Source: Kiritimatiellia bacterium (GTDB taxonomy: Bacteria > Verrucomicrobiota > Kiritimatiellia > RFP12 > UBA1067). From it: DNA of 64,000 nt. The stretch's first letter is position 1. Each line of letters begins with the position of its first letter. The stretch covers positions 11,475 to 75,474 of the forward strand of contig JAGCAM010000079.1 of the NCBI GenBank assembly GCA_017652705.1, in the 5' to 3' direction. Both the position numbers and the translations under genes were made by a program. Of this stretch, positions 19,090 to 55,740 are shown piece after piece. The notes beneath the pieces are model-generated. The model had not been told where the DNA came from. It was given only the letters and a program-made list of their open reading frames with translations, and made no database searches.

Positions 19090-19119
19090 ATGATATCATT
19101 TCAAACCCGCGATTGTCAA
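19090..19119 (-). promoter_or_regulatory. near-consensus promoter of tRNA-Arg: TTGACA-N18-TATCAT with TG
   Basis: The -35 is tgtcaa at 19114-19119 (RC TTGACA). The extended -10 is atgatatca at 19090-19098 (RC TGATATCAT). It begins 12 nt after the stop of the upstream 1749-aa gene. Confidence 0.6.
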
Positions 19120-19130
19120 TGCGAAGGCGG

Positions 19131-22100
19131 TCATCGGCCTGCGATTTTAATCGTGCCCGGCTTCAGACCGGGTGCGGTTACAGTCAGCTCAGGGGCGTCG
19201 CCGGTGCCCCGGTAGCGCCTCACCGCCACCACCGCTTTGCCGAACCACAGCGAGTGCCCTTTCAGACTCTTGAAAGACACCATCGACCGGGGATCGCCGT
19301 TGCCTACCGCCGCGATTTCACCCGGGCCTTTCAACAAGACGTCGAACTTCGCGTCCGAGACCGGCGAACGGTTGCCTTTCGAGTCCACCGCGTCAATCTG
19401 CACGAAAACCAGATCGGAGCCTTCCGCCGAATACGGATCGCGCGTGAGCCTGATCGCCTTCGGCGCACCTGCCGTTTTCATCTTCGCTTCGCCGATTTTC
19501 TCCCCGCCGCGGTACGCCACAGCTTTCAGCTCACCAGGCCTGTACGGCACGTCGAACCAACGCAGTCTGTACTTCGCGCACACTTCATAATACCTGTTGG
19601 TGAGCGCAGGGTTGCGTTCCACCACCCCCTTGCGGCGGCGGCCGAGCGATCTGCCGTTGAGAAAAAGTTCCGCCTCGTCGCCTGATGTGTAGACGTAGAC
19701 AGGCACTTTGGTCCCTTTATGATCATTCCAGTTCCAGTGCGGAAGAATGTGCACAGTCTCCGCCTTTTTGTTCCAGTGCGAGCGGTAGAGATGCCAGCGG
19801 TCTTTTGGAATGGCGCAGATGTCGGCGGCGCCGAAGTAGGAACTGCGCGAAGTGTCGGCGACGGTGAAGCTGCGGCCGGCCGCCTTGACATAGTGGCTGC
19901 CAAACTCGCTGGCGCCGAGGAACCAGAGTGTGTAGGGGGTGGGCTCGCCAATGTAGTCGATGCCCGACCAGACAAATTCGCCGCAAACGTAGCGGTCGCG
20001 TTCCATCCGGTCGAATTCGACGTCGGCGATGTCGCCCCAGGTCGCGGCGATCTGGTCGTAGCCGTCGACTTTCCAGTTTTTGACGTCGGCGCGGAACCAT
20101 TCTCCGTGCTCGGTGTTGTTGGTGTTGGACCACCCCTCGCGTTCTTCGTTGCCGGCGAACGGAACCCGGTAGAAGCCGTAGTCGGAGAACGCGCTCGCGG
20201 ATTCCGAATAGAACAGCGGCATCGCCGGGTTGCGCGCGTGCATGTGGCGGTAGCTGCCGCCGTAGTTCCAGCCGTTGAGGTCGAGTCCGTCGAGATCGCC
20301 TTTTTCGACGGCCTTTACGTAGCAGCAGCCAATGCCGACCGGACGGGTGGAGTCTTCGGAGAGAACCGCCTTGCGGAAACGGTCGCAGCGTTCGCGGGAG
20401 GTGCCCTGGGAATATTCCTCGCAGTTGAAATAGATTTCATTGCCGAGCGACCAGGTGAACACGCAGGGATGGTTGCGGTCGCGGCGGACGAACGCCTTAA
20501 GATTGCGCTCGACGTATTCTTCGAGATTCTCCCCGGGGAGCCGCCCGGCGGTGCCGTCCCATTTGTCGAAACATTCATCCCAGACTAGGATGCCAAGTTC
20601 GTCGCAGAGATCGAGCAACTGCGGGGCGGGGCAGTTGTGCGAGGTGCGTACGGCGTTCACGCCCATGTCGCGCATGCAGAGAAGCTGGCGCTTCGCGGCG
20701 TCGCGGTCGAACGCCATGCCGAGCGGCCCCAGATCGGAATGGAGGTTGACGCCGTGAATCTGCAGGCGGCGTCCGTTGAGAAACAGTCCGTTGGTGGTTA
20801 CGGAAACGGAGCGCACCCCGTAGCGGAACTTTTCACCGGCGACGGCGTATTCGTAGAGATAAGGGTCGTCCACGTCCCAGAGACGTGGTTTGAGAATTTT
20901 GAACGAGGCGGACTTTGGACCCGAAAGTGTGCGCCAGCTGACGTTGACGGTCGCCTCGGCGGCGGATATTTTCGGAGTGGTGATCGCCACCGAGCCGGGG
21001 ATGGCGTGACCGTCGCCGCGGGTCACGAGGCGAACGCTGCGGTAAATGCCGCCGCCGGGGTACCAGCGCGATTTGTGGTCGGTCGTGTCGGCGGAGACTT
21101 CAAGACTGTTTTCACCGTTGACGACAAGAGCGGACACATCGAGGATGAAGGATGCGTAGCCGTAATCCCACCCGCCGGCGTCTTTGCCGTTGACCTTGAC
21201 TTTCGGGCGGGCCATCACTCCGTCGAATTCAAGGTAGACCCGCTCGCCCGGCTTGCCGGACTTGCGCCAGACGAAGCTGCGTCGGTAGTCGCCTTTGCCG
21301 CACCACGACAGCTTGCCGGTGGCGTAGTCGTTGGTGTGGTTGAACGGCCCCGCTATCGCCCAATCATGGGGAACCCGCACCTTTGACCAAGCGGAGGAGC
21401 CGCCGCGGCGGAATTCCCAGGCGTCACCGTCGAGAGAGATGGATCGGAACGCCGAGTCGACGTTTTCCCTGGCGAAAGCGGAGAGGTCGGGTTCACCCCA
21501 CAGCGGAACGTAATTGCGGTCTCCGAGAGTTACCGCGAAGGAGGATATCTCCTCGAAACCGAGGAGGCGGTAGTATTCCACGTCGGCGGCGACGACGTCC
21601 TTCGCCTGGCGGAAAAGTTTCACGGGAGATGTCCAGTGGGAGTACAGGGAATTGTCGAACCAGTATTCGAGAACGCGAGAACCGGCGGAGCCGAACTTTT
21701 CAATCAGGGCTTTAAGGGGCTTGGTCTCGCCGTTGTTCTGGTCGGCGAGGGGACGGCCGAGATCGCGTTTGATGGGGGCGTATTCAAGGAACACGCCTTT
21801 GACCGGTTTCACTTTCTCCGGCGGGTTGATGGCGTCGGCGTAGGCAAGGTAGCAGAGTTCGGCGTCGGGTATGAACTTGCGCAATTCGGTCACGATGGCG
21901 TTGGCGAAAATCAGCTGCTGGTCGCTGGCGGAGAATCCGCGGCATTTTTCGCATTTGCACACGCCGCCGTGCACGTCGTCAAGCCACAGACAGTAGCGGC
22001 GGTTGCCGCCGTAGAGGGCCTTGGCGAGTTCGACCGCGCGTTTCCCCGCAATGTTCATGGCTTCGGGGTTGGAGAAGCAGAAGTTCTTGTCCCTGCAGCG

Positions 22101-24380
22101 GGCGCCCTTCTCGTCCATGCGGAAATATTCGGGGTGAACGTCGAAAAGGTTGCGCGGCAGCAGCCAGCTGGCGGCGTGGATTTCATAGCCGATGTCGATG
22201 CCGAGGGCTTTGGCGCGGTCGATGAGGGCGCGGTAGCCGGGCTCTTTCAGTCTGGCGAGTGTTTTATCGAGCGCGACTTCGGCCTGGCCGCCGCCGCCGG
22301 GATGGATGGAAAGATTGTGGAGACCGAGATTCACCGCGCGGTCCACCCAGCGGTCGGAGAGTTCGTCGGTGCCGATTACGAGGGATGTTTTAAGCGCCCC
22401 GGCCGGCGGAGCGGCCGGCTTTTTTTCACGGAACCAGACCTGCATGTCGTTGCCGGGCTGGCGGTGGTCCCACGCGAAGTACGGTATCAGTTTCAGCCCG
22501 TTGGAAGCTTTGAGCGCGGGGAAGGTCTTGTCGCCGATCACGATGGTGTCGTCGGTGAAAGTGGCGTCTTCGGGAAGAACGGCGTCGTAGGCCGCGCCGC
22601 CGTTGTCGCAGCCTTCGGCGCAGTAGAGCATGGGGCCGCGTTCGACGGCGAGACGGCCGAGGTCGTCGACGACGGCGCGGTGGGCGCGGATACGCTTGAC
22701 CGGCATGGGGAAATTGACTTCGACTTTGTCGCCGGCCTTCCATTTTCTGTCGATGTCGATGTAGCCGTCTTTGCCCGGTGCGGGGTCAAGAGCGGCGCCG
22801 TTCACCGAGAGAGTGATTTCCTTGACGCTTGCGGGCACGGTCTGGGTGTACAGGTCGCCGGGCACCGGTTCACCTTTCGCCCAGCCGGGAACGCGGAGTT
22901 TTAGCGTGAACCGCTTTTCGGCGGCCGGGCTGACGGCCAGCGTTGCGCGGCCGTTCCACGGATATCCCGTGTCGCATTTGAACTTGACCCCTTCCACCTC
23001 GGCTTCGCCCTGCATGACGAGGTTCCAGAATATGTTCGCGCCGTCGGTCGCCCACGCGAAGGACGGTATCTGGGGGATGAAGCGGACGTCATTCACCGGG
23101 CAGCAGCTGCAGCCGAACCACTTCGAACGTCTGTAACCTCCTTTGCAGGCGAGCGGGTTGGGGTAGAAGTACTCGTCGCCGGTGAGTGACACGCCGGAGA
23201 GGAATCCGTTGTAGATGACCCGCTCGAGTATATCGACGTATTTGGATTCGCCGGAAAAGCGGAACATACGTTCGTTCCACAGGGCGTTGGCGATCGCGGC
23301 GCAGGTTTCCAGATAGGTCACGCGGTAGTCGTTGGGCAGCAGATAGTCGCGCTCGAACGCCTCGCCGCGGGGGGTTCCGCCGACGCCGCCGGTGAGGTGC
23401 AGCTTGCGACCAGAAACGTTGAGCCAGATGGCGGAAATCGCGTCGAGGTACGCCTTGTCGCCGGTGAGGGCGGCGACGTCGGCGACACCGCAGTACAGGT
23501 AGCCGGCGCGCACAGCGTGGCCGACCGCCTCGCGCTGGAGGACGACGGGCATGTGATCCTGGATGCCCGCGCCCGGGGCGACGATGGGGTCGACCGGTTC
23601 ACCGCCGGGGCCGACCGGCCGCCCGTCTTCGAGAGACCTGCCGCGGCCGCGCATTTCAATGAAGTGGCGCGCGAGGTTGAGATAACGCTTCCTGCCGGTC
23701 ACCCGGTAGAGCTTGGCGAGGGCGAGCTCGATTTCCTCATGGCCGGGCGCGTCTTTGAGCTGGGTCGGGTCGGGCCCGAACACGCGGCAGAAAAGATCGG
23801 CGGATTTTACGGCGACGTCGAGGAAATTGCGCTTGCCGGTGGCCCGGAACCACGCGCAGGCGGCTTCGATCATGTGCCCGTTGTTGTAAAGTTCGTGGCT
23901 GGAGCCGATGTTGGACCAGCGAACGGGGCCCATCATGCCGCTGCTGCCGCCGCCTTTGCTGAAGTGCCAGTGGCCGAGCGTTCTGGCGGTGTAGAGGTAG
24001 CCGTCTAATTCCTGCGCTTTGGCGAACTGACCGATAAGCCAGTCGCAGTATTTTTCAAGTTCGGGGTCGGGGTGGTTGGCGAGCACGTAGGCCGCCCCTT
24101 CCACCACCTTGAACACGTCGGAATCGTCGAAGGGAATTCCGCCGAACTTGCCGGCGCGGGCGGCGGCGTTGGTGAAGTTGGCGATGCGCGGCGTCTCGTT
24201 GCATTTGTCGAAACAGTTTTTGAGGGTGGAAAGACGGTTCGTCTCCAGCCGGTCGTACCAGAAGCCGCCGGTGACTCTGACCTTGGTCATGTCGGCGGAG
24301 CGGATCGGGTAGTCGTTGGCGGCGGCGGCCGCAGCGGCGGCAACGAACGCTGCGACGGCGACAGAGAGTTTCTTTTTCAT
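19131..24380 (-). CDS. secreted triple-fusion glycosidase: GH127 (DUF1680) + DUF4838-like core + GH2
   Basis: 1749 aa with a signal peptide.
- GH127 motifs: HELYNNGHMIEAACAW, GHEEIELALAKLYRVTG, CSCCPVN.
- A Pro/Ala linker follows.
- The DUF4838-like block contains VCKCEKC.
- GH2 part: WSKVRVPHDWAIAGPFN, NHPCVFTWSLGNEI, GEFVWSGIDYIGEP. Confidence 0.85.
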   Translation of the reverse strand: MKKKLSVAVAAFVAAAAAAAANDYPIRSADMTKVRVTGGFWYDRLETNRLSTLKNCFDKCNETPRIANFTNAAARAGKFGGIPFDDSDVFKVVEGAAYVLANHPDPELEKYCDWLIGQFAKAQELDGYLYTARTLGHWHFSKGGGSSGMMGPVRWSNIGSSHELYNNGHMIEAACAWFRATGKRNFLDVAVKSADLFCRVFGPDPTQLKDAPGHEEIELALAKLYRVTGRKRYLNLARHFIEMRGRGRSLEDGRPVGPGGEPVDPIVAPGAGIQDHMPVVLQREAVGHAVRAGYLYCGVADVAALTGDKAYLDAISAIWLNVSGRKLHLTGGVGGTPRGEAFERDYLLPNDYRVTYLETCAAIANALWNERMFRFSGESKYVDILERVIYNGFLSGVSLTGDEYFYPNPLACKGGYRRSKWFGCSCCPVNDVRFIPQIPSFAWATDGANIFWNLVMQGEAEVEGVKFKCDTGYPWNGRATLAVSPAAEKRFTLKLRVPGWAKGEPVPGDLYTQTVPASVKEITLSVNGAALDPAPGKDGYIDIDRKWKAGDKVEVNFPMPVKRIRAHRAVVDDLGRLAVERGPMLYCAEGCDNGGAAYDAVLPEDATFTDDTIVIGDKTFPALKASNGLKLIPYFAWDHRQPGNDMQVWFREKKPAAPPAGALKTSLVIGTDELSDRWVDRAVNLGLHNLSIHPGGGGQAEVALDKTLARLKEPGYRALIDRAKALGIDIGYEIHAASWLLPRNLFDVHPEYFRMDEKGARCRDKNFCFSNPEAMNIAGKRAVELAKALYGGNRRYCLWLDDVHGGVCKCEKCRGFSASDQQLIFANAIVTELRKFIPDAELCYLAYADAINPPEKVKPVKGVFLEYAPIKRDLGRPLADQNNGETKPLKALIEKFGSAGSRVLEYWFDNSLYSHWTSPVKLFRQAKDVVAADVEYYRLLGFEEISSFAVTLGDRNYVPLWGEPDLSAFARENVDSAFRSISLDGDAWEFRRGGSSAWSKVRVPHDWAIAGPFNHTNDYATGKLSWCGKGDYRRSFVWRKSGKPGERVYLEFDGVMARPKVKVNGKDAGGWDYGYASFILDVSALVVNGENSLEVSADTTDHKSRWYPGGGIYRSVRLVTRGDGHAIPGSVAITTPKISAAEATVNVSWRTLSGPKSASFKILKPRLWDVDDPYLYEYAVAGEKFRYGVRSVSVTTNGLFLNGRRLQIHGVNLHSDLGPLGMAFDRDAAKRQLLCMRDMGVNAVRTSHNCPAPQLLDLCDELGILVWDECFDKWDGTAGRLPGENLEEYVERNLKAFVRRDRNHPCVFTWSLGNEIYFNCEEYSQGTSRERCDRFRKAVLSEDSTRPVGIGCCYVKAVEKGDLDGLDLNGWNYGGSYRHMHARNPAMPLFYSESASAFSDYGFYRVPFAGNEEREGWSNTNNTEHGEWFRADVKNWKVDGYDQIAATWGDIADVEFDRMERDRYVCGEFVWSGIDYIGEPTPYTLWFLGASEFGSHYVKAAGRSFTVADTSRSSYFGAADICAIPKDRWHLYRSHWNKKAETVHILPHWNWNDHKGTKVPVYVYTSGDEAELFLNGRSLGRRRKGVVERNPALTNRYYEVCAKYRLRWFDVPYRPGELKAVAYRGGEKIGEAKMKTAGAPKAIRLTRDPYSAEGSDLVFVQIDAVDSKGNRSPVSDAKFDVLLKGPGEIAAVGNGDPRSMVSFKSLKGHSLWFGKAVVAVRRYRGTGDAPELTVTAPGLKPGTIKIAGR

Positions 24381-24410
24381 TTCAGCGGTCTCCTTTTAAG
24401 GGTGAAGCTT

Positions 24411-24902
24411 TCACAGATGTTTGATGTTGATTTTGCCTGTGGCGAGTCCCGGGGCCGATGCCGTCAGGGTGGCGGGGCCTTTGCCGGTGCGCCGAAGGAT
24501 TACCAGGGCCTTGCCGTGGAAAAGACGGTTGCCGGCGACGTCCTTGACCGAGTCGTAATCGCGTGGGTCGCCGTTGCCTACCGCTTCTATGACGGCGTCG
24601 CCGCGGACCGCGAAACCGACTCGGTCGCCGGCGTCGGGAACGCGCGTACCGGCTGCGTCCGCTTTCGCGGCGGTTTTCACGCTGGCCACGCCGATCTTCC
24701 TGCCCCTGAGATAGCGGACCGCCCTGAGTTCGCCCGGTTCCCACCGCACGTCAAACCAGCGCAAACGGTAGCGGCCCATAATCTTGTAATACGGGTTGTC
24801 GCGGCCTTTCCCGTTGAACTTGGCGACGTCGCCGCAGTCGCTGTGCAGCGGATAGTCGAGGCGGAGCTTCCGTTTCATTGGCCTTATTTTGTTTTGTCGC
24901 AC
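24411..24902 (-). pseudogene. stand-alone remnant of a GH2 C-terminal region (no catalytic domain)
   Basis: 155-163 aa. RYRLRWFDVRWEPGELRAV and AVGNGDPRDYDSVKDVAGNRLFHGKALVILRR align by eye with the last ~150 aa of the adjacent 1749-aa protein, with an internal gap. Confidence 0.6.
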
Positions 24903-27683: not shown

Positions 27684-29771
27684 TCAGAACTTCACGGAAG
27701 TCGAGAGCGTATCGACGAAACCGGGCTGTCCGCCGCCGACGTAAACCGCGGTTTCACCCGAGGGCACCGTCGCTTTGCCGTCTTCGCCGAAAACCGCGAA
27801 CTGCTCGTTCAGCAGCGTGAAGGTGACGTTCCGCGACGCACCGGGGGCGATGCGAACGCGCGTGAACCCCTCAAGATGGTGCAGACGGCGGTCGCCGGCC
27901 GCGGCGGGGGCTTTCAGATAGAGCTGCACGACTTCGTCGCCGGCGAGCTTGCCGGTGTTTTTCACGTTGACGGTGATCTCTGCGCCGGACGCCGTCTTTT
28001 TGGCCCGGATGTCGGAGTAGGCGAAAGTCGTATAGGAAAGTCCGTAACCGAACGGATACGCCGGCTTTTTCGTGGCGTAGCGGTAGGTGCGCCCGACGAG
28101 GGTGTAGTCGGCGAACGCGGGAAGGTCGTCGTAGGATTTCGGGTAGGTGATGGGGAGCCTCCCGGCCGGGTTGTTTTTGCCGAATATCGTGCGGGCGACT
28201 GCGCGCCCCCCCTGTTCACCGGGATACCATGCGAGAATGACCGCGTCGGAATTTCTGACGACCGGCTCGAGATCGAACGGGCTGCCGCCGAAGATGACCG
28301 AGACTACGCACTTGCAGCTCTTGCGGTAGCCCTCAAGCAGTTTCAACTGGTTCTGGGGCAGCGAATAGGAGGTGCGGTCGCCGCCGGAATTGTTGACGCT
28401 GCACCCCTCCTCGCCTTCGTCTTCGGCGGTGATGCCGAGACAGACTATCGCGATGTCGCTGCCGTGGGCGCCTTCGGGCACGCCGATTACGCGAACCCCC
28501 GGGCCTGCCTCTTCGACCACCCCGGAGAAGACTGTTGACGGACGCGCAGCGTAGCCGCAGTAGTTGCCGATAAGAGCCACTTCGTCCATCGCGCGCGGAC
28601 CGACCACGCCCACGCAGACGGCTTTCTTGGGGTCGAACGGCAGTGCGCCGTTGTTGGAAATCAGCACGAGAGATTTCTCGGCGGCCTCAAGCGCGAGATC
28701 GCGGTTGGCCTCGGTCGCGACGTCCTTTTCGCCGAGGTGATCCCACGGCGTGGAACCGTTTCTGTCGAACTGGCCGAGCAGAACGCGGGTGTTGAGAAGC
28801 TGCACCAGCGGTCGCTTGAGCTCGTCGCCGGTGACCTTGCCCTCTTTAATGGCGTCGCGGAGGCAGGCGTAGGTGCCTTCCGAACAAAGGTCGAGACCGG
28901 CCGCGATCGCCGCTTTGCACGCCGCCACCCTGTCGGCGGTGAAATGATGTCCGGTGTGGATGTCGGCGACCGCGCCGACATCGCTGACGATATGGCCTTT
29001 GAAGCCCCATTCGCCGCGGAGGATGTCCGTGAGCAGTTCGCGGTTGGCGCAGCACGGCACGCCGTTGAGGGCGCTGTAGGCGCCCATGAACGCCTCGACT
29101 TTCGCGTGCATCGCCAACGTGCGGAACGCCGGCAGATAGTATTCGCGGAGATCCCGCGCCGAAACCTTGGCGTTGAACCCGTGGCGCAGACGCTCGGGCC
29201 CCGAATGCACCGCGAAGTGTTTGGCGCACGCCGCGGTTTTCAGATACTTTTTGTCGTACCCCTGCAGCCCGCGGACGTACGCTCCGCCCATTACGCCGGA
29301 GAGGTAGGGGTCTTCGCCGAACGTCTCCTGGCCGCGCCCCCAGCGCGGATCGCGGAACATGTTGACGTTGGGGCTCCACAGGGTAAGCCCTTTGTAGATT
29401 TCACGCTGGTCGCGTTCGCGGAAGAGGTTGTACTTGGCGCGCGTCTCGGTCGAGACGACGTCGCCGACGCGCTCCTGCAAGCCGGAGTCGAACGAGGCGG
29501 CCATGCCCATCGACTGCGGGAACACCGTGGCGAGACCGGCGCGGGCGATGCCGTGCAGCGCCTCGTTCCACCAGTGGTAGCGGGGAATCCCGAGCCTGTC
29601 GACGGCGGGGGAGTCCATCATCAGCAGATCGACGCGTTCCTCTGGGGAGAGTTGCTCGACCATCGTCCGCGCGCGCAGCTCGCATTCGGAACGGCGGTAG
29701 TCGGAAGGTATGGCTGCGGCGGATGCCGCGGCGAACGCGGCGATGGAACCAGCGGCTATTTTCATGTTCAT
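27684..29771 (-). CDS. GH3 beta-glucosidase/beta-xylosidase family protein
   Basis: 695 aa with a signal peptide. It has KHFAVHSGPE, GHIVSDVGAV (nucleophile-Asp region) and a C-terminal fibronectin-like domain. An SD GGAG lies upstream, and there is an ATGA overlap with the upstream ORF. Confidence 0.88.
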   Translation of the reverse strand: MNMKIAAGSIAAFAAASAAAIPSDYRRSECELRARTMVEQLSPEERVDLLMMDSPAVDRLGIPRYHWWNEALHGIARAGLATVFPQSMGMAASFDSGLQERVGDVVSTETRAKYNLFRERDQREIYKGLTLWSPNVNMFRDPRWGRGQETFGEDPYLSGVMGGAYVRGLQGYDKKYLKTAACAKHFAVHSGPERLRHGFNAKVSARDLREYYLPAFRTLAMHAKVEAFMGAYSALNGVPCCANRELLTDILRGEWGFKGHIVSDVGAVADIHTGHHFTADRVAACKAAIAAGLDLCSEGTYACLRDAIKEGKVTGDELKRPLVQLLNTRVLLGQFDRNGSTPWDHLGEKDVATEANRDLALEAAEKSLVLISNNGALPFDPKKAVCVGVVGPRAMDEVALIGNYCGYAARPSTVFSGVVEEAGPGVRVIGVPEGAHGSDIAIVCLGITAEDEGEEGCSVNNSGGDRTSYSLPQNQLKLLEGYRKSCKCVVSVIFGGSPFDLEPVVRNSDAVILAWYPGEQGGRAVARTIFGKNNPAGRLPITYPKSYDDLPAFADYTLVGRTYRYATKKPAYPFGYGLSYTTFAYSDIRAKKTASGAEITVNVKNTGKLAGDEVVQLYLKAPAAAGDRRLHHLEGFTRVRIAPGASRNVTFTLLNEQFAVFGEDGKATVPSGETAVYVGGGQPGFVDTLSTSVKF

Positions 29772-30397
29772 TTGACTTCTCCGTGTGGGATTTTAACCTT
29801 TGCGGGTTGAAAAATCATTTGAAGGCCACTTTCGCCGGCGCAAGGCCGTCGGAACTCGCGGTCAGTTCGGCAGCCCCTTCCGCACTCGATGCCCGCCCCC
29901 GGGTACCAGCGCGAAGCGTGGTTGTAGGTCGAACACGCGACGACGACGTGGTTCGACTTTGCCGCCAGCAGCCCGGTGACGTCCATCCGGAAACTCATGT
30001 AGCCGTAGTCCCAGCCGCCGGCCAGCCGCCAGTTGACGTAGCCTTTCGCGTCGGCCATGACGCCGTCGAATTCAAGGTAGGCTTTGTCGCCGTTCTCGAG
30101 CAGCGCCCAGTCCGCCGCCGGAATGTCGTCCACCCACCTGCGGTACATGTAGGCCCCCTTCCACGGCAGCTTGCCGGTGACCGGCCCGGCCAGGGGGTTG
30201 AACGGGCCTTCGATCGCGGCGTCGTGAGGCACTTCGACCTTTCGCCATCCTTCGGTCGGATCCGCCGCCTGGATGTTGCGCAGGTGGTCGCCGTTCAAGT
30301 CGCGGATGTACAGCCATCCGCCGTCGAGCGGAACCGTGCCCGCACCGGCGGCGAAGACGCCGCCGAGAACGGCGAGCGGAAAAATGATCTTTCGCAT
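29768..30397 (-). pseudogene. signal peptide plus GH2 N-terminal sugar-binding domain only (truncated GH2 remnant)
   Basis: 209 aa. WRKVEVPHDAAIEGPFN, AYLEFDGVMADAKGYVNWRLAGGWDYGYMSFRMDV and SRWYPGAGI match the GH2 part of the 1749-aa protein. Similarity stops near aa 171, and a non-homologous tail follows. Confidence 0.6.
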
Positions 30398-30400
30398 GCC

Positions 30401-33400
30401 TCAGTTCTCGCGGAAGATGAACTTTGAAAAAGCTCCCGGATCGCTGTTGTAGCCGTTGCCGCGCGTATGCAGGCGGGACATCTCGGTGGTGTGCGGGGTT
30501 CGCTTGTTGAGCGGACGGATCGTCTTGTCGCCGCGGCGGAGGCGGATGAAGTTCCCCGTCCAGGACATGCCCCCTGAAGTCGTCGGGTGCACCGCGTCTT
30601 TGTAGAGCGCGATCATCGGCTTGTACGGCACGTAAAGTTCGATGCTCCACGACTTCTCGTTCTTCGCGATCGCGCAGCGGACGCCTTCCGGCCCCTGGGC
30701 CTTCTTGAAGCCGTCGTACCACTCGAACTTGCCGCTCGCGTTGATAATCACGCGGCCGAAAGCGCCGTAGTCGCCGCCGAGGTCGATCAGCGCTTCGACG
30801 CAGTCGTTGACCCAGTAGTTGCCGGTGGGGCCGTCGTTGCAGAGGTTCGCCATGTCGCTTTCGCGGCAGTCCATGCCGAACGTGACTGCGGTCGGCGTCC
30901 ACACCGCGCGTATCGACGTGCCCTCTTTCGGCGTCGTGCCCTCCTTGCGCGCGCCGGTGAACTCCTGCGCTTCGGCCAGCTTCCAGCAAGCGTCGTCGAG
31001 CTTGCCGTCGATCACGGGGTCCTGCGACACTTTCTGCATCATGAGCGGCGCAAAGGCGCTGCCGGCGGCGTATTCGGCCGATTCCTTGAAAAACTGCGTG
31101 AAGCCGCCTTTGTAGTAGGCGATGCGCTTCATGAGCAGCTCGTCGCCGGCGCAGAGCTGCTCTGCCTCGGCGAAGAGCCCCTCCATCCTCAGAACTTCCG
31201 CCCGCGGATAGGAAATCGTGTAGATGTTCCGGTTGTTGACGCGGGAGACCTTCCACTGCCGCTCCCAGCCTGTCTCCTGCAGGCGGACGATCTCGCGCAG
31301 CTGTTTCGCCGCGGGCCCGAACATGCGGTCGGCGAAGGTGTCGTAGACGGAGTCGATGTTCAGCTCGGGGTTCCACAGCAGGCGCATCCAGCAGTAGGCC
31401 GAAAGCACCAGCCGGTCTACCGGGTAACGACCGTTGAGAAAGCTGCCCGCTGTGATTTCGCGCGTGTCGCGGTAGTGGCGCTGGGCCGTCTTGGCGAAGA
31501 TAAACGGCGCCTGGCAGGTCTCCGCCGGCCAGCAGATGTAGTGCCAGTTCTGCACCGGCCGACCCGTCACCCGCGCCCAGTCGCGGATGAGTTGCTCCTG
31601 GAACTCCTTCACCGGCTTCTCCTTCAGCATGGCGAGACCGGGCATCGTGCAGAGAAACGCCTCGACGTTGCCCTCTTCGACGAAGTCCACCCCGTCGGGT
31701 ATGTCGGTCGTGTTGTGGTACGGCAGAATGACTATTTTCCAGCCGGGCAGTTCCTTCTTCGCCCACTTGGCGAGTTCTTTCGTGAAGTAGCCCCAGAGCA
31801 CGTTCGAAAAGCTCACGCGGCTTTCGGCGATGTTCTCCTGCGGGTGTCTGGCGAGTATCGCCTTGCAGTATTTGCAGTTGCAGAAAACGGCGATGTCCCA
31901 CTGCGAAACGGTGATGCACTTCGCCAGCGGTGCGGTGATGTCGCCGCGTGGCGAACCGCTGGCGATTTCGGCGAGGATGCGCTCCTTGTACGTTTCGAGG
32001 GTGCGGGGGTTGCCGTAGCAGAGCAGCGGCATCGTCGCCCGTTTGCCGTCGTCGGTCAGCGCGAAGATTTCCGGCCGCGTGAACATGAAGTTGAGGTTGG
32101 TGTTCCTGTTCCACGCCCCGGGCGCATGCACGTGGTGCTCTCCGCAGTGGCTGTCGCCGTTTTTCCACACCCGGCACCATTCGTTGCCTTCGTACGGCCA
32201 GAGGTCGCGCTTGGCGAAAACCGGCTTGTCGGAGTAACTGAACGCCGGCAGCGAAAGCCCGTATGTTTTCACCACAGTGCGGCCGCCGTTCTTGACGTCC
32301 CAGTATTCGCGCACGGCGAGGGCGCGCTCCGCGAAGTCGGTCGCCGCGTAATCGCACCGCGCGCCGCAAAGGTAGACCGACCCGTCTTTCACGCACACCT
32401 TGAACCCGTGCGCGTCGACGCCCCAGCGCTCGCGCTGGTAGGTGGCGAGCCCCGCGCGGCGCGTCGCCGCTACATCGCCTATGTAGATCGCCGGGGCGTT
32501 GGTGACCGGTCTGCCGCCGCACTCGCGCACGATCCTGAGCCTGGCGCCGGTCATGTCCTCGATCACCGAGGCGATGAACTGCGCGGCGAACTGCCCGTCA
32601 CGCGAATCTTCGCAGACGATGTCCATCGCCGGTATCGAGCCGAGAGCGACGGTCGCGCCGGCGCCGCCCAGCCAGCGGAAATCTTTCACCGGCGTCAGAT
32701 CGCGCGCGTTCACGTTCATCGGGGCGCGCTGCGCATGATAAACCCTGCGGCGGACGTCGTCGACGCGCACCACCGCCCCGCCGCGCTTGCCCGATTCCTC
32801 CGCGGCGGCCATGAGCGCGAAGATCTCGTCGGTTTCCTCGGAAGGGAAAGGCTTCACCCCGGTTTTGAAAAACTTGAGTATCTCCTCGAGCATCGGCGCG
32901 TAACCCTCGTATCCCCCGAGATCGACCACCCCCTTGTCGGCGGTGAACGCCTGGCCGGAGTAATTCCACATCCCGGGCCCGCGCATCATGCGCAGACCGC
33001 CGAATCTGCCGTCGCGCCATCTGACGGCCACGAAATCGTTGCTTTCGTTCGAAAAGCAGCTGACCGATTCGGCACCGACCCCCATCACCGCCACGAGCGG
33101 CTCGAAACCGTGGATGCCGTACCAGGTGAACCGCGAGTGGGTGCGCTCAAGCGGCGAGGGAGCAGCGTAGTTGACGCCGCGCACCACGCCCAGCTCCCCT
33201 TTGCGCGCCGCCTGCACCTTCGAAGTCCACCGCAGCGCGGAACAGCTGAAGAAATTGGCGTTGACCCGGCGCGCCTCGTCGAATATCCGGGTGGCGGACT
33301 GGTAGTCGCTGGCGAGGGGCTTGTCGATGAACACCCGCTTGCCGCTCGCGAAAACCTCCCGCGCCTGGGCCAGATGCTCGCGGCCGTCCTGCGTTTCAAG

Positions 33401-33721
33401 CAGCACCACGTCGCACTTCGCCAGCACGTCTTTGACGCTCGGCTCCATTTCAACGCCCATCTCCTTCATCTGCCCGATGTATTTCGGGTAGTTGTTCGTC
33501 ACCGCGGGTATCGTGCGCGAGCCGTACTTGTACGCGGCCACGACCCGGAAATCTTTGAATATCTCGCGGTCGCGCTTGACGTTGATGTGCCTGGTGAACT
33601 CGGTGGCGTGCGACGTGTCGACGCCGATGACGCCGATCTTGATTTCGCCGGCCGTCGGGGCGGCCGCGGCCGCCGCCGCCGCGAGAAGTGCGATTGAGCG
33701 AAGTGGTCTGTCCATTTTCAT
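30401..33721 (-). CDS. secreted fusion: Gfo/Idh/MocA oxidoreductase domain + DUF4838 + CBM9-like domain
   Basis: The ATG at 33721 (MKMDRPLRSIALLAAAAAAAA) has an SD GGAG; the track ORF starts at a TTG at 33757.
- Oxidoreductase part: IKIGVIGVDTSHATEF, FIDKPLA.
- DUF4838 part: FCNCKYC, WHYICWP.
- CBM9-like part: IDGKLDDACWK. Confidence 0.85.
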   Translation of the reverse strand: MKMDRPLRSIALLAAAAAAAAPTAGEIKIGVIGVDTSHATEFTRHINVKRDREIFKDFRVVAAYKYGSRTIPAVTNNYPKYIGQMKEMGVEMEPSVKDVLAKCDVVLLETQDGREHLAQAREVFASGKRVFIDKPLASDYQSATRIFDEARRVNANFFSCSALRWTSKVQAARKGELGVVRGVNYAAPSPLERTHSRFTWYGIHGFEPLVAVMGVGAESVSCFSNESNDFVAVRWRDGRFGGLRMMRGPGMWNYSGQAFTADKGVVDLGGYEGYAPMLEEILKFFKTGVKPFPSEETDEIFALMAAAEESGKRGGAVVRVDDVRRRVYHAQRAPMNVNARDLTPVKDFRWLGGAGATVALGSIPAMDIVCEDSRDGQFAAQFIASVIEDMTGARLRIVRECGGRPVTNAPAIYIGDVAATRRAGLATYQRERWGVDAHGFKVCVKDGSVYLCGARCDYAATDFAERALAVREYWDVKNGGRTVVKTYGLSLPAFSYSDKPVFAKRDLWPYEGNEWCRVWKNGDSHCGEHHVHAPGAWNRNTNLNFMFTRPEIFALTDDGKRATMPLLCYGNPRTLETYKERILAEIASGSPRGDITAPLAKCITVSQWDIAVFCNCKYCKAILARHPQENIAESRVSFSNVLWGYFTKELAKWAKKELPGWKIVILPYHNTTDIPDGVDFVEEGNVEAFLCTMPGLAMLKEKPVKEFQEQLIRDWARVTGRPVQNWHYICWPAETCQAPFIFAKTAQRHYRDTREITAGSFLNGRYPVDRLVLSAYCWMRLLWNPELNIDSVYDTFADRMFGPAAKQLREIVRLQETGWERQWKVSRVNNRNIYTISYPRAEVLRMEGLFAEAEQLCAGDELLMKRIAYYKGGFTQFFKESAEYAAGSAFAPLMMQKVSQDPVIDGKLDDACWKLAEAQEFTGARKEGTTPKEGTSIRAVWTPTAVTFGMDCRESDMANLCNDGPTGNYWVNDCVEALIDLGGDYGAFGRVIINASGKFEWYDGFKKAQGPEGVRCAIAKNEKSWSIELYVPYKPMIALYKDAVHPTTSGGMSWTGNFIRLRRGDKTIRPLNKRTPHTTEMSRLHTRGNGYNSDPGAFSKFIFREN

Positions 33722-33876
33722 GACTCCGGTTAGTGGTTGTGGCTGTTCGATTCTCAAAGTCCAGAGCTGCAGACTCTGCCGTTCTGAAAGATATTTGTCG
33801 CGGAAACCGCGGGTGTGAAGCCAGCCTTCGGCGATGTTGGGCTTTTCAACATACCGCTCTCATCGCCGCACCGCCG

Positions 33877-46360: not shown

Positions 46361-49300
46361 TCACTTCACCGTGACGGTCTTCTCGGACGAGACTCCGGTC
46401 ATCACGTCGGTTACGACGATCTTCCAGCGGTCGACGCTTTCGTTGAACGCCACGCGGAAGTCGCACGACGCCCTGCCCCCCTTCGCGTCCACCAGCTTGA
46501 ACTTGACGGGCGCGAGGCGCTCGAAGCTTTCGCCCTCCGGCGGCAGCATTTCGAAGCGCAGCACGTGGGTGACGGGCTTCGCCCCCGCGTCGCCGGCGAC
46601 GACCGCCGCCTCCACGTGCAGGTCGGAACCCTTCGCCGCCGAATCCGGCGCGTTCACCTCCACCGCCTTCACCTCGTAGGGCAGCAGCGCGTAGAAGCAC
46701 TCGTCGAGCCCGTTGAACACCACCGGTATCGCGTCGGTGCGGCCGACGGGTCTGCCCGCGCGGATGTCGTAGACCCAGTTCGTCGAGGCGAGTTTGACCT
46801 CCGCCTTCATCGGGAAGCGCTCGCAGCTGCGGCCCGACTTCTCCACTCCGAGGCACACCGCGCCGTCGCGCGTGAAGCGCGTGAATTCGGCCGGCACCGT
46901 CACTCCGTCGGCCACCGCCCGCGCGAACGGCCGGTGCCCGCAGGCCGCGAAAACGCGGCGGAACGCCTCGTTCGCCGCGCCGAGTTCGCCGCGCCCGTCC
47001 AGAAACGGTATCGCAGCCATGTTGATGTTGAACAGCACCGCCCTGCCCTTGCCGAATTCGCGGACGAAAAACGCCTCCGCGCCGGACGCCGCCCGGGCAT
47101 GCGCCTTCGCGCCGGACGCCCGCAGCGACGCGTCGACCAGAACCCCCTTGATCTCCACCGGCGCGGCGGCGAGCCCCTCCACGCGCAGCGTCGCGTGCTC
47201 GACCTTCGCCTCCGGCGAGAGCCGCTTCACGCCGAAGAGTTCGTCCAACGGAGGCTTCGCGTGGCGGACACCGTCCACCCCGTGCGTCGCGATGCGCGCG
47301 TCGGCGATGACGCTGCCGCCGTTCCTGACGAACGAAATTATCTCCTCGATCTCCTTGTCGCTCAGGATCTGCGTGTAGCCGAGCACCAGCGTCTTGACGC
47401 CTTTCCTGAGGTCGCCCTTCTCGATCATTTCGCTCGAAATGCCGTCCCACTGGAAACCGTGCGCGACCACCAGCCCTTCAAGCGTGCCGCGGGCCTGGCC
47501 GTGGGTGCTCATCTCTTTCACGAGCGGGCTGAGATGGCCGGAGTTGCGGCTCACCAGCACGCGGATGCCGTCGTTCTCGCGCTTGGAACGGGTGGTGAGC
47601 GCCACCGGCCCGCGCATGATTTCGCGGTACGTCGCGAACATCCACCCCGCGCGGCCGGGGTTCACCGACCCGTCGCCTTCGACCATGTAGCTGCCCAGCC
47701 AGAACCAGCTGAAATTGCACCCGTCGAGAAGGCCGTGCCATACCTGCCGTTCGCGAATCGGCCTCTTTACCTTCTTGCCGCCGTACACGCCGATGCACTC
47801 GCCGATGTAGCGGTGCGGAACTGCCCGCGCGAGCTGGATGTCTTCGCTGCCGGCGTAGGGGCAGACCGTGTTGAGGTGCTTGAGCACGTCGTACTTGATG
47901 TTGCCGAGCGTCGACGCGCCGAACCCGAAGCCGATCGACCGGTCGCGCGAACAGACCCCGCGCGCGATCGCCGCCGCCTGGTCGACGAACGCGTCCTCGA
48001 GGTACGTCTGCCGGTCGATCGCCGGCGCAAACACGCCGTCCTTCTGCCGTTCCTCTATCAGCTTCTGCTCGATTTCGAGAAAATCCTTCACCGACGTCTT
48101 CCACACGGCGTTGAGCTTGTCGACCGTGCCGTACTTCTTCTTCAGCCAGAAGAGGAAGTTCACGTACTGCGGCGACTCGGCGGGTTTCGCCGCCTTCACC
48201 GCCTCGAGCGTGACGTCTTTCCAGTCGGCGAACTTCGTGTTCAGATGCGCGTTCATCACTTCCACCCTGTCGTACGCGTCGCGCATCGCCGCGACGACCG
48301 TCGGCAGTTCGTTCGGCGTCAGGTTCTCGACCATCTTCGCCACCGAATCGCGGTCGGTTCCGAACAGCCGGAAGTCCTTCACCCCCTGCCTGCGCAGGTT
48401 CTCGGCCTTGCGCTCGCGGTACGCCGGCACCCAGTCGGGTATGGTGTTCTGAATTACGCTCGGTGCACCCGAGTCGTCGCCGAGCGAAATGAAGCGCCCG
48501 TTGATTTTCCGACACTGCTCGGCGTGTTCCGCGTAGCGGCGTTCGAGATGCTTCAGCCACCAGCGGCTTGAAATCGAGCAGCCCCTGTCGGAGGTGCTGC
48601 CGGGTATGCGGTCGCGGATGACCGGGTCGCCGCCGCGAAAGCACGATCTGACGTCGCTGGTCTCCCACAGATCAATGCCGCAGTACTGGAAGTATGCAAG
48701 GCGAAGCTCAGCGAATTCGCCGCTGCCGCACGGGTCGGTGGTGAAAATGCGGTAGTCCGCGCCAGCGTCGCCGCGGTGGAGAAAACAGGTCAGCCGCCTG
48801 ACGTCGAAAACCCGGTCGCCTTCAAGGTAGACGTCGATGAAGTTGCAGCTCCAGTCGAGAAACTTCTGGTCGAAGACGATTTCGACCGAATCCGCCGAGG
48901 CGTCGACCGCCGCCTCCACCCGCGAAATGACGCGGTTGCGCACGTCGCGCAGATCGCCGCGCACTTTGAGCCCGCCCGCCGACGCGCCGTTCACCGCCGC
49001 CCTGACCGCGATCTTCTCGCCCGGGTTGAACGTGCCGCGCCCGGCCGAGAACCGAACTTCGCCGAACTCCGGCGGCGCGATCTCCGCGCGGCAGTAGGCG
49101 CCGCCGCAGCCGCACTTGACCGGCTTGCCTGGCTTGATCACCAGTTCGCCTGAAGCGAAATCGAGCAGCTTGCCGCCCGCCTCGAGCCGCGCGTCGACCG
49201 TGTAGCGGCCCGCGCCGAGCCGCGGCGCCGCGAGCGTCACGTGGTTGGTGCCCGCCGGCAGATCCACCGCGGGGCGGTCCGGGCCCGCCAGAAGCCTGCC

Positions 49301-51419: not shown

Positions 51420-54400
51420 TCATTTCACCGGTGCCGCGAGCGTCACCGCCGCCGCGCTTTCAAGCCCGGTCGCCATGTCGCGCAGCACAACTTTGTAACG
51501 TCCGGGCGCGTCGGAATACGGGAACTGGAAGTCCACCTTCGTCTTGCGGTCCGCGCAGAACAGCGTTTCGCGGTTCGCGATGCGCGCGCCTGCGGGCGAC
51601 TCAGTCTCCAGCCGGTATACCGAGCCTTTGCGCAAAACCGCCGTGTCCAGCGAAATCTCGTCGCCGGGCGCGATTTCCGTCTTCGTCAGCCTGACTTCGG
51701 GCGGCCGCTGCTCGGTCTTGAACGCCGCGTAGAGCGCATGCGGTTTCTCGAGACGCGCGATCGTTATGCGGTCGGACCGGCCGATGAAACCGACATCGGA
51801 TTCATACACCCACTTCTCCTCGCCGAGCTCGATTTCCGCCCGCTTGCCGAGATTGTAGGTGCTGGTGACGAACCCGAGCAGCGTCATGTCGCCGAGTTCG
51901 CGGATCCGGAACTTGACACCGTCCGTCGAAATCCCGGAAAGCTTCTCCTTCACCGTTATCCCGCTCTCGGCGAGCAGCGCGGTTATCCGGTCGTCTTTCC
52001 AGCCGCGCTTGAGCTCCTTCCATAGACCGGAGAGCGGCGGTTTTTCGCGGCGCGCGAGGTATCCGTCGAGAACGCCCGGTTCGCAGTCGGAATATATCTT
52101 GCCGCCGCGTTTCGCGAACTTGGCGAGCGCGGCGGTTTCGCCGTCGTCGAGGGCGACCGCGCCGGAGAGAAACAACGCCTTCATCTCGTCCAGCCTGCAC
52201 AGCGACCGCCGGGTGACGATCGCCGTGTCCATGCCGTTGCGGTAGCAGTAGTCGATGAACGCGCCGTTGCCCTCGCGGGCGGACGGAAAATCGTCCGAAA
52301 GCGTCGACGCGTGGTTGGAGGCGTGGGAATAGTAGATCGCGAAGGCGCTTTTCCGCATCGGCACCCGGCACAGCAGCGCGCCGATCCCGCGCGACAGCGG
52401 CCTCCACGTGGGCAGCATGCGCTTCACGTACGGTGCCGGCTGAAAATCGCTCGACATTCCGGACTCCGCGCTCGCGGGGTCCATCTGGAACCAGAGGTCG
52501 GCGTTGAGGGTTCCGCACAGCACGTACCCCCACTGCTCCGCGGCGAAACCGTCGCGCGGCGAGCGTTGGTAGCCGCCCCACCAGATGCCGCGCAGGCAGC
52601 GCGGCGCGATGTTGCGCACCAGTTCGTCGTCGACCTTGTTGCCGTACGGCCCCCAGAACTCCAGTTTCGAAAGCGTGTATTCGATGTCGGCGCCGGGCGA
52701 CCCCTCCGCGCCGCAGCGCGCTTTCGGGTCGCGCTTCTTGATTATCGCCGTCAGTTCGTGGAATGTGTCGGCGTAGAGGTGCTCCGCGTACTGCACCTGG
52801 TCGTACCACGTCACCCAGTCGTTCGCCGCCCTGGACGCTTTCACGCGCACGTGCGGCGCCTCCGCGAAGTCCGCTATGTTGGTGCCGTGCGCCCGGTTGT
52901 ACGCCGCAAGCGTGCCGTAACGCTTCTTCAGATAATCGCGGTAGTACCCTTCGCTCTCGGCGTCGCCGAAGCCGATGTCGGACGAATACCCGCACTCGTC
53001 GCCGAAACTCCAGGCGAGCGGTCCGTACGGCAGCGTTGCGTCGATTCTCTTGTTGTAGAAACGCGCGAGCCGCTCGCGGACCGCCGGCCGGTGCACGTTG
53101 AGGTCGTGCCCGTTCGCGTCCCACCACTGCTTGATTTCGGGATCGCCGCGCGACGATTTCGGTATCGGGCATTGCGTCGTCCACACCGTGCCGCTGGGAC
53201 CGGCGGCGAGGCACACGCGCGTCGAATACGGCAACGCCCGACCGTTGAATATCGCGCTCAGCGAGCCGGACGACAGATGGTTGTTGTAGCCGATTTCATC
53301 CATCAGCGGGGGCGCGAAGAGTTCCGCGAGATTGCCTGGGCCGATGCCGTCCCAGCAGATCATCGCGTAGTCTTCGAAACGGTGCGTCGGGAAGAACACC
53401 AGTTTCTTCACCTTCGCCGCCGCGCCCCCGTCGGCCTTCCTCAACGTCACGTCGACGCACCCCGCCTTCGTCGGGAACGGCTTCGCGGCGATCTGATACC
53501 TCACGCTCCGCGCGCCGCCGCCCACCGGAATCTTGCACCTGGCCCGCACCTGGCGGTAGGGCATGTCGCGCAGCAGCACATCGACCGTCCACTTCTCCCC
53601 ACGAGGCACGGGCTTCTCCCACGCGATCACCGTGTCGAACCGGCAGCCCTCCGCTACCACCATCCTGTTCGTGCCGTTGACGGTCATCGCCCCGACCGGG
53701 CTCTGCACCGTAAACTTCCTCACCGACGCGAAATCGTCGCAGCCGCCGCTCCCCGGCACCACGTCGACGTAGTAGTCGCCCCCGGAGTAACCGGATATGT
53801 CGACCGCGAACACGTTGCGCCCGGCCTTGACCGGCGCCGTCTCGTCGACCAGCAGTTCGTTGTCAGACGATCTCACCCGGTACTTCACCGAATCGCACGC
53901 GCCGCGGGGCGCGGCTTCCACGGTGAACGGATACAGCTCGGTGCCGAGCGGCAGCGGCTCGGCCACGCCGGCGGCCTGCGCGAATTTAACCGTCGACGCC
54001 GGGTTGCGCCCCGCCGCGTAACGCGCCGCGTTCATGAAATACGTCGACCGCGTCTCGTAGTTGGCCCTCCACGCGAAGTTCCAGAATTCAGGCACCGGCA
54101 CGTCGATGCACACCACGCGCCCCCTGCCGTAGCGGTACGCCCTCACCGCCTTCGGCGACAGCCCCGCCGCCGACAGTATCCGCCGGCCTTCCTCGTCGGG
54201 CTCGAGGTACTTCTCGTCGGGCACCAGATCGCGCCCAACCCTGGAACCCCGCAGCACCAGCCCCACCCCCTCGTCATGCACCCGCCTGACGATCTCGCAG
54301 CGGTACACCGCCGGTATGCCGGACGGATAGGTGTAGTGAAGCACGATCACTTCGGGGTTTTTCGCCAGCATCGTTTCAAACTGACGGTAGCGCGGCAGCG

Positions 54401-55667: not shown

Positions 55668-55674
55668 GAAGTTA

Positions 55675-55683
55675 ATTCTACCA
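55675..55683 (-). promoter_or_regulatory. extended -10 box TGGTAGAAT, 7 nt from the ATG at 55667 (leaderless candidate)
   Basis: The reverse complement of attctacca is TGGTAGAAT. Confidence 0.5.
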
Positions 55684-55740
55684 AAATACGCCGCCAAGGG
55701 CAATAGCACGCGCCGGACGCGGTACGTCGGCGGCTGTCAC

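Follow-up and report, generated by a model that had tools for sequence, protein, structure and literature searches.

Glycoside hydrolase (GH) families 127 and 146 have in common a Cys3-Glu zinc site that is regarded as their hallmark (PMC10850190), and a GH127 enzyme of the Bacteroides arabinogalactan system has been reported to act in synergy with exo-galactanases (PMC10850190). DUF4838 holds two characterised families: GH163, represented by the endo-beta-N-acetylglucosaminidase BT1035, and GH185, founded by the 6-sulfo-GlcNAcase Sp_0475 (PMC10570127). Here we analyse a gene in which GH127 and DUF4838 sequences are joined to a GH2 enzyme within one reading frame. It lies in a stretch of 64,000 nucleotides (hereafter the window) from a Kiritimatiellia bacterium (assembly GCA_017652705.1, contig JAGCAM010000079.1, positions 11,475 to 75,474) and encodes a protein of 1,749 amino acids (aa) with GH127, DUF4838 and GH2 modules in that order. 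The results given below confirm that this is a real single gene for a Sec-exported multi-catalytic protein of a Kiritimatiellae bacterium. To judge from its scaffold name and the hosts of related genomes, the bacterium appears to come from a ruminant gut.

The reading frame extends from an ATG to a stop codon without an internal stop. The original prediction, made from the DNA alone, had described it as uninterrupted, which it is, while leaving unsaid that it is carried on the minus strand. The product, MBO7721726.1, is named "DUF4838 domain-containing protein" in NCBI, where it stands in a cluster of one. The signal peptide that had been predicted was recognised, by eye in the translation, as a Sec-type sequence without a lipobox Cys. 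It is followed by three complete modules, each folding independently, which are tied together by two short linkers (11 and 10 residues), the first of which contains the predicted KKPAAPPAGA at aa 653-662.

Several observations bear on the integrity of the frame. An ENA scaffold matches the window over 11.2 kb and a Logan contig over 7.1 kb, and both alignments are gap-free with a single mismatch each. Near the junctions the frame offers no alternative start codons other than GTG at codons 679, 683 and 1001; these all lie inside domains, none has a ribosome-binding site, and initiation there would truncate a domain. Alignment of the junction regions revealed no remnant of a signal peptide at either of them. 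Junction 1 holds a run of seven adenines (A7), and A8 or A6 versions of it would end GH127 at codon 664 or 668; both alternative frames stop within 17 codons. The frame is nevertheless open throughout and the assemblies agree; frameshift or stop errors of the kind named in the original prediction were not found at the junctions in these assemblies. Three assemblies without indels, together with the lack of internal starts, ribosome-binding sites and signal peptides, uphold the view that the protein is a single polypeptide rather than the product of three genes. The G+C content of the gene is 62.3%, compared with 62.9% for the window, and G+C at third codon positions (GC3) is 0.83 in the GH127 module, 0.77 in the middle module and 0.78 in the GH2 module, as against 0.83 +/- 0.045 for 27 other genes of the window. 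A recent foreign origin of one module is therefore out, as GC3 of all modules falls within the range of the genome.

The GH127 module consists of an (alpha/alpha)6 catalytic domain, a middle domain and a C-terminal beta-sandwich. All three corresponding Pfam domains were matched above their gathering scores within aa 33-651 and nearly end to end, in agreement with the prediction of a full GH127/DUF1680 module: the catalytic domain (PF07944) at aa 33-439 with 330.5 bits (gathering score 24.9), and the middle and C-terminal domains (PF20736/PF20737 set) at aa 451-559 with 73.6 bits (24.2) and at aa 561-651 with 73.2 bits (23.7). The sequence proposed as a GH127 C-terminus, PYFAWDHRQPGNDMQVWF, is found at aa 633-650, within the range of the C-terminal domain, and the predicted CSCCPVN motif occupies aa 424-430. 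When the module was aligned with Bifidobacterium longum HypBA1 (3WKW), E340 fell on the acid/base Glu322, E358 and C360 on the zinc ligands Glu338 and Cys340, C426 on the nucleophile Cys417 and C427 on Cys418. These HypBA1 residue numbers (E322, E338, C340, C417, C418) were reproduced by counting along the 3WKW alignment. E358, C360 and C427 would thus be zinc ligands, and the counterpart of C426 in HypBA1, the nucleophile, also ligates the Cys3-Glu zinc. By this alignment the module is predicted to be a cysteine glycosidase with its acid/base, nucleophile and zinc site intact.

The closest solved structure in a PDB search was 6EX6, described as a "six-hairpin glycosidase" and presumably Bacteroides thetaiotaomicron BT3674, with 546 bits over aa 23-651. 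The nearest NCBIfam subfamily is the aceric acid hydrolase equivalog NF049879, and the GH127 module scores 376.8 bits against it, below the cut-off of 950. Like 6EX6 and HypBA1, the module is a three-domain GH127 whose catalytic and zinc residues correspond position by position; unlike them, it carries two further catalytic modules.

The GH2 module comprises five domains: a sugar-binding N-terminal domain, an Ig-like domain, a TIM barrel, DUF4982 and C-terminal domain 5. Pfam matches were obtained for GH2_N at aa 998-1120 (46.8 bits), for the TIM barrel at aa 1192-1348 (90.1 bits) and, above gathering scores, for DUF4982 at aa 1556-1629 and GH2_C5 at aa 1646-1745; the Ig-like domain gave a weak match of 19.1 bits, below its cut-off of 23. 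Profile hidden Markov model searches (Pfam, NCBIfam), of the kind called for by the original prediction, thus bear out both the GH127 and the GH2 assignment. A full GH2 with the acid/base motif WSLGNEI had been proposed, and this motif lies at aa 1310-1316, with E1315 as the acid/base. The proposed nucleophile region had to be moved. The sequence put forward, GEFVWSGIDYIGEP, is present at aa 1467-1480, but this conserved GH2 motif lies some 75 residues past E1393, whose counterpart in the Bacillus circulans beta-galactosidase 4YPJ is the Glu of "SETSSA". The GEFVW motif in the proposed region is thus a distinct GH2 element, and the nucleophile sits in FYSESAS instead.

The solved structures closest to the GH2 module are 5T98, 9BEY and 4YPJ, at 357-442 bits (300-442 bits with 4CU6 included); 5T98 is GH2A of Bacteroides uniformis, a gut Bacteroides. 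The best-scoring named subfamily in NCBIfam is the beta-galactosidase GalB equivalog NF041463, which the module matches with 623.5 bits, below the cut-off of 900. Its domain order is that of B. uniformis GH2A (5T98), B. circulans BgaD (4YPJ) and Streptococcus pneumoniae BgaA (4CU6), and it shares with them the acid/base motif WS(L/I)GNE and the nucleophile motif SE(S/T). It differs in lacking a signal peptide of its own, as it begins 10 residues past the preceding module, and in having two stretches inserted between the nucleophile and GEFVW. By its sequence, the module is a member of the beta-galactosidase clade in which both catalytic Glu residues are present.

Between these two enzymes lies a barrel of about 307 aa. 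Pfam DUF4838 (PF16126) was matched at aa 727-895 with 54.7 bits (gathering score 26.6), over profile positions 55-224 of 325. The original prediction had taken the block for the catalytic-core half of a DUF4838 protein; the assignment to DUF4838 stands, whereas the description as a half does not. With aa 651-995 as query, 153 relatives were retrieved, mostly stand-alone proteins of 303-340 aa with 44-61% identity at about 90% query coverage, and a few with a signal peptide and about 190 additional aa at the C-terminus. The module spans a stand-alone relative from the first strand (ALKTSLVIG, corresponding to MKxxLLIHP) to the last motif, GEPDLSAF. As stand-alone proteins of about 307 aa can be aligned with it over their whole length, the middle block is a complete minimal barrel, and the Pfam model falls short of its diverged ends. 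An AlphaFold2 model has eight beta/alpha units and a pLDDT of 94.4. In PDB sequence searches aa 652-990 had no match, and neither the middle module nor a profile of 62 sequences gave anything below E = 0.39. The fold of the barrel resembles GH20, GH84 and GH42.

All 30 strictly invariant columns of the family are retained in the fused copy. They include H693, P694, Y732, H735, R761, W799, D801, D802, E866, Y906, D909, N910 and four Cys; E905, beside Y906, is conserved in at least 90% of the members and is also kept. The invariant residues occupy the C-terminal ends of strands 2-8, the usual arrangement in a barrel enzyme, with D909/N910 following Y906 past the end of its strand, and the acidic ones at the ends of strands 4, 6 and 7 make D801/D802, E866 and E905 the candidates for catalysis. 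The predicted VCKCEKC is present at aa 807-813, and its CxCxxC is shared by the closest DUF4838 paralogue in the window. With C768, these cysteines presumably form a Cys4 zinc cluster, with the spacing C768-(33)-D802-(5)-C808-x-C810-xx-C813. The structural Cys-Zn cluster of some GH42 enzymes has the similar spacing C113-(34)-E148-(4)-C153-x-C155-xx-C158 (PMC8573354), and by the distance to the acid/base position the cluster of this branch is presumed to be of the GH42 type. These features lead us to infer that the barrel is a retaining glycosidase stabilised by zinc, in which D802 or D801 would serve as acid/base and E905 would be the nucleophile. A substrate-assisted mechanism like that of GH20 and GH84, operating through the DD pair, is a conceivable alternative for the barrel.

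These "short DUF4838" proteins form a branch of their own. At E <= 1e-30 the branch comprises at least 138 sequence clusters (50% identity), and it is very common in gut metagenome-assembled genomes (MAGs) from goat, sheep, deer, yak, buffalo, horse and chicken, mostly of Clostridia. The stand-alone copies in these MAGs are mostly about 305-320 aa long, and those that were aligned begin at the first strand, without a signal peptide. All 62 short-family members examined match Pfam DUF4838. GH163 and GH185 share with them PF16126 and a (beta/alpha)8 barrel distantly related to GH20. The differences are in size and in signatures. Founder catalytic numbering in GH185 Sp_0475 (Q174, H227, D309, Y436 and the sulfate-binding R633) reaches R633 (PMC10570127), whereas the module in the window has about 307 aa; BT1035 of GH163 has a C-terminal F5/F8 domain (PMC10570127), which Pfam did not detect in the window module; and the invariant DD pair and the Cys4 cluster of the short branch are features not described for GH185 in that source. 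Given the size and the description of Sp_0475, full equivalence of the middle module to the GH185 catalytic set is unlikely. Judged by the descriptions of the two families, the short DUF4838 branch is uncharacterised and stands apart from both in size and signatures.

Membership of GH42, a family with an N-E acid/base at strand 4 and an M-E nucleophile at strand 7, was considered and rejected. The spacing of the Cys cluster is alike in Bacillus Gal42 and Bca-beta-gal (3TTS), but the strand-4 N-E acid/base of GH42 is replaced by D-D (D801/D802) in the window module, which is also far smaller and has neither the trimerisation nor the C-terminal domain. Pfam GH42 (PF02449) gave weak sub-threshold matches in 23 of the 62 short-family members and none in the window protein. 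Short DUF4838 proteins may work like GH42 enzymes without being members of that family. A tentative and rather doubtful extension of this idea would make the branch a new GH family separate from GH163 and GH185, a minimal barrel with GH42-type Cys4-zinc, a strand-4 Asp and a strand-7 Glu, which trims plant arabinogalactan or pectic side chains. If this were true, the cap that it removes could be, for example, arabinopyranose, rhamnose or a uronic acid, and the fusion would be a "Rosetta stone" for its substrate.

The context of other family members bears on their role. Short DUF4838 barrels are also fused to GH106, to GH43 with CBM9, to a GH42-like region, to aldose 1-epimerase and to an AraC-type regulator (P0239, P0241, P0325 and P0317 among them), and the fusions to GH106, GH43 with CBM9, the GH42-like region and aldose 1-epimerase, together with abundance in herbivore guts, support a role as glycosidase. 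Neighbourhoods of the stand-alone genes vary (GH29, GH30, GFO/IDH/MocA, a glycyl-radical enzyme, ribosomal genes), with no consistent partner.

Taken together, these observations argue that the protein is probably an exported three-module glycosidase for plant arabinogalactan or pectic side chains, whose modules would act in turn while tethered to one another. It would work in the periplasm or outside the cell, on side-chain oligosaccharides of plant arabinogalactan or pectin. There GH127 would take off terminal beta-L-arabinofuranose caps, and GH2 would then take off the beta-galactose residues bared by GH127. The middle barrel, if active, would remove a third type of residue by a retaining mechanism, with D802/D801 as acid/base and E905 as nucleophile. 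Tethering would keep the activities together, the product of one enzyme being the substrate of the next, and, as the termini of a (beta/alpha)8 barrel lie opposite its active site, insertion by short linkers between two other modules should leave the pocket unblocked. The target could plausibly be plant arabinogalactan or pectin, the nearest solved relatives being the Bacteroides GH127 6EX6 and GH2 beta-galactosidases; the neighbouring GH3, the other DUF4838 proteins and a weakly GH28-like beta-helix protein were also counted toward a plant-glycan substrate.

The fusion thereby ties an uncharacterised DUF4838 branch physically to two families of known arabinogalactan/pectin chemistry, which is where its value lies. 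It gives a cheaply testable substrate hypothesis for the branch and a candidate one-polypeptide cocktail for the glycans of arabinogalactan-proteins; no long-standing question is opened by it. Multi-catalytic glycosidases are a common route in Planctomycetes and Verrucomicrobia against highly decorated glycans, of which the window protein is a further example.

The combination itself appears to be rare. In a full-length search of 5.8 billion clusters, the query protein itself was the only one with GH127, DUF4838 and GH2. When the middle module was used in an exhaustive HMMER search, none of the 150 best hits exceeded 1,177 aa and none had GH127 or GH2; the partners seen in the long hits were GH106, GH43, GH42-like, epimerase, metallo-beta-lactamase (MBL) and GNAT domains. 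Similarly, tblastn found no locus with all three domains among 80 genome and 5 metagenome loci fetched with the middle module. The 1,749-aa protein itself (P0001) was missed by the middle-module queries, word-indexed as well as exhaustive, so long multi-domain proteins may hide from them, and the finding of no other fusion is weaker than it looks. The same order of three domains, which the original prediction had proposed to seek in other genomes, was thus not found elsewhere within the reach of searches that can hide long proteins.

Fusions of a related kind do exist. In metagenomes GH127 is joined to GH2, GH5, GH29, GH32, GH43, GH51, GH95, sulfatases and others. The Planctomycetes protein P0051 (1,536 aa, GH2 + GH127) and P0032 (1,875 aa, LacZ-type GH2 + GH127) share with the window protein the joining of GH127 and GH2 in one secreted polypeptide; in these, however, GH2 comes first, it is of other subfamilies (27-30% identity to the window GH2), and DUF4838 is absent. 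The reversed order and the different GH2 subfamily indicate that fusions of this type are independent events. A further match, weak at 75 bits and confined to the GH2 part, was to the 1,400-position NCBIfam model NF049877, "beta-D-glucuronidase/beta-L-arabinofuranosidase", which we take to represent the Bacteroides rhamnogalacturonan II (RG-II) enzyme BT0996 (GH2 + GH137). It offers a characterised precedent for pairing GH2 with a beta-L-arabinofuranosidase for one complex plant glycan, although its arabinofuranosidase is not a GH127 and its GH2 is a glucuronidase. The architecture is therefore unique in detail and ordinary in kind, as multi-catalytic glycoside hydrolases and GH127 fusions are already common.

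A number of points weigh against a tethered arabinogalactan/pectin enzyme with three activities. We infer the substrate and the order of action from family membership, and neither the GH127 nor the GH2 module is orthologous to a characterised enzyme (377 of 950 and 623 of 900 bits, respectively). The architecture is a singleton. In tblastn searches, GH127 or GH2 was found within 7 kb of a short DUF4838 gene at 0 of 88 other loci, so that these loci lend no independent support to a functional link between the modules. The NCBI MAG, ENA and Logan assemblies that carry the gene appear to share one source sample. Finally, the fused middle module departs from the consensus at 8 of the 84 columns that are at least 90% conserved, compared with a family mean of 3.0 +/- 2.1 and a maximum of 8. 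The columns that are at least 85% conserved and have changed include H670G, P671T, K918S, P920V, C950V, D956N and E958V, all just past strands 1, 7 and 8, on the catalytic face. Such substitutions may mean that the pocket has been remodelled for a new specificity, or that it is decaying, in an early loss of function.

The last of these possibilities leads to the alternative that survives best, although we consider it rather unlikely: the fusion is real, but the middle barrel is non-catalytic, a rigid spacer or sugar-binding module within a bifunctional GH127 + GH2 enzyme. The seven residues just listed are kept in 85-100% of 61 homologues, and the closest secreted homologues (54-61% identity) retain them; the window protein ties for the most deviations in the family. 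Two ordinary stand-alone members (P0143 and P0196) deviate equally, however, and the fused copy keeps every strictly invariant residue as well as the near-invariant E905 and has a model that folds confidently in AlphaFold2. On balance, we consider an active middle barrel moderately more likely than one that has lost its activity.

It is improbable that the long open reading frame (ORF) is instead a recent outcome of rearrangement at an unstable locus, selectively neutral and heading for decay. The architecture was found once, the middle module carries extra substitutions, and two ORFs in the same cluster resemble the remnants of a second GH2 gene. One of them, with a signal peptide and GH2_N, shares 49% identity with aa 995-1112 of the fusion before diverging past RWYPGAGI; the other extends from mid-DUF4982 through GH2_C5 and has 40% identity to aa 1595-1746. 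The two flank the GH3 gene and the gene for a 918-aa DUF4838 protein, and no remnant of the central TIM barrel was found by tblastn. These split GH2-like ORFs suggest a past rearrangement in the locus. The 1,749-codon gene itself, in contrast, runs for 5,247 nt without a stop, with every catalytic residue of GH127 and GH2 intact, exact domain boundaries and short Pro/Ala-type linkers; its GC3 is typical of the genome, and a ribosome-binding site and signal peptide are in place.

A merger of three adjacent genes, through an assembly chimera or sequencing errors at the junctions, is very improbable. The source is a MAG, and a 1-nt error in the A7 run at junction 1 would shift the frame, but no indel separates the NCBI MAG, the ENA scaffold and the Logan contig. 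Breaking the A-run would leave 1,090 downstream codons without a start, ribosome-binding site or signal peptide, yet with two intact modules, and errors break ORFs rather than make two in-frame joins right at domain boundaries. In addition, no GH127 or GH2 genes flank the middle module's closest relatives. With assemblies free of indels, no internal start signals and alternative frames that close fast, we reject this explanation. Hardly credible at all is a dnaX-like programmed -1 frameshift at A AAA AAG (codons 652-654) yielding a stand-alone GH127 beside the full-length enzyme: the heptamer is in phase exactly where GH127 meets DUF4838, it is followed by a GC-rich hairpin, and a ribosome shifted to the -1 frame would reach a stop 10 codons on, at codon 664. 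The window, however, contains AAAAAAG 7 times, where 6.9 would be expected, the gene uses AAA for Lys and GAA for Glu more often than their synonyms, and the hairpin has no spacer, where dnaX-type sites pair an in-phase X XXY YYZ heptamer with a stimulatory structure 5-9 nt downstream, and folds no better than chance (z = +0.94; 167 of 200 shuffles fold as well). Read on the plus strand, linker 1 resembles a terminator more than any other site of the region (7 GC pairs and T7); as it too is no better than chance, both a dnaX-type site and an intrinsic terminator at linker 1 were rejected, and the heptamer and hairpin are treated as a coincidence arising from Pro/Ala codons (CCG/GCC).

Table 1. 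Features of the 1,749-codon gene and its surroundings (positions in the window)
Feature	Position	Strand	Basis or remark
Whole gene, 1,749 codons and stop	19131..24380	-	product identical to NCBI MBO7721726.1 (Kiritimatiellae MAG)
Shine-Dalgarno-like AAGGAG	24390..24395	-	9 nt upstream of ATG; context ...TTAAAAGGAGACCGCTGAA, then ATG
Sec-type signal peptide (predicted), aa 1-21, MKKKLSVAVAAFVAAAAAAAA/ND	24318..24380	-	translation inspected by eye
GH127 module, aa 23-651	22428..24314	-	Pfam and structure-relative alignments
Codon of C426, aligned with nucleophile Cys417 of HypBA1 (3WKW)	23103..23105	-	alignment
Linker 1, aa 652-662, EKKPAAPPAGA (11 aa)	22395..22427	-	codons GAA AAA AAG, then GC-rich palindrome
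Linker-1 DNA, GAA AAA AAG then CCGGCCGCTCCGCCGGCCGG	22399-22427	heptamer and hairpin on coding strand	terminator-like on + strand
Complete short DUF4838 (beta/alpha)8 barrel, aa 663-969 (~307 aa)	21474..22394	-	Pfam, alignment, model
CxCxxC (C808, C810, C813)	21942..21959	-	with C768, presumed Cys4 zinc cluster
Linker 2, aa 970-979, ARENVDSAFR (10 aa)	21444..21473	-	alignment and codon positions
GH2 module, aa 980-1749	19134..21443	-	Pfam, NCBIfam, structure-relative alignments
Codon of E1315, GH2 acid/base in WSLGNEI	20436..20438	-	alignment to 4YPJ, 5T98
Codon of E1393, GH2 nucleophile in FYSESAS	20202..20204	-	alignment to 4YPJ, 5T98
Sigma-70-type promoter (putative), TTGACA-18-TATCAT, extended TG, 11/12	19090-19119	-	just past the stop of the 1,749-aa gene, ~200 nt before the 402-aa gene
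3' remnant-like ORF of second GH2 gene	24411-24902	-	mid-DUF4982 through GH2_C5
5' remnant-like ORF of second GH2 gene	29768-30397	-	signal peptide and GH2_N

The 1,749-aa gene is the last of a co-directional cluster that also encodes, in this order, a GFO/IDH/MocA oxidoreductase, a GFO-DUF4838 fusion, a GH3 and the 918-aa DUF4838 protein. The next gene past it encodes the beta-helix protein mentioned above (402 aa, weakly GH28/rhamnogalacturonase-like), and the strong, near-consensus sigma-70-type sequence between the two suggests that this downstream gene may have its own promoter.

The GFO-DUF4838 protein is the second fusion in the cluster. It is encoded at 30401-33757 on the minus strand and has 1,118 aa, with a GFO/IDH/MocA oxidoreductase (Rossmann) domain N-terminal to a full-length DUF4838. 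An oxidoreductase joined to a glycosidase-like barrel recalls pathways of oxidative (3-keto) glycoside cleavage. Two adjacent giant ORFs, both on the minus strand, lie elsewhere in the window: one at 46361-51379 (1,672 aa) has a weak CBM9 match, and the other at 51420-55709 (1,429 aa) has no Pfam match. Across the whole window there are six proteins with a GFO/IDH/MocA domain, a count that includes the DUF4838 fusion, as well as two xylose-isomerase-like TIM barrels, two 3-keto-disaccharide hydrolase (DUF1080) proteins and four DUF4838 proteins. The window is thus dense in genes typical of oxidative sugar cleavage, which are interspersed with housekeeping genes.

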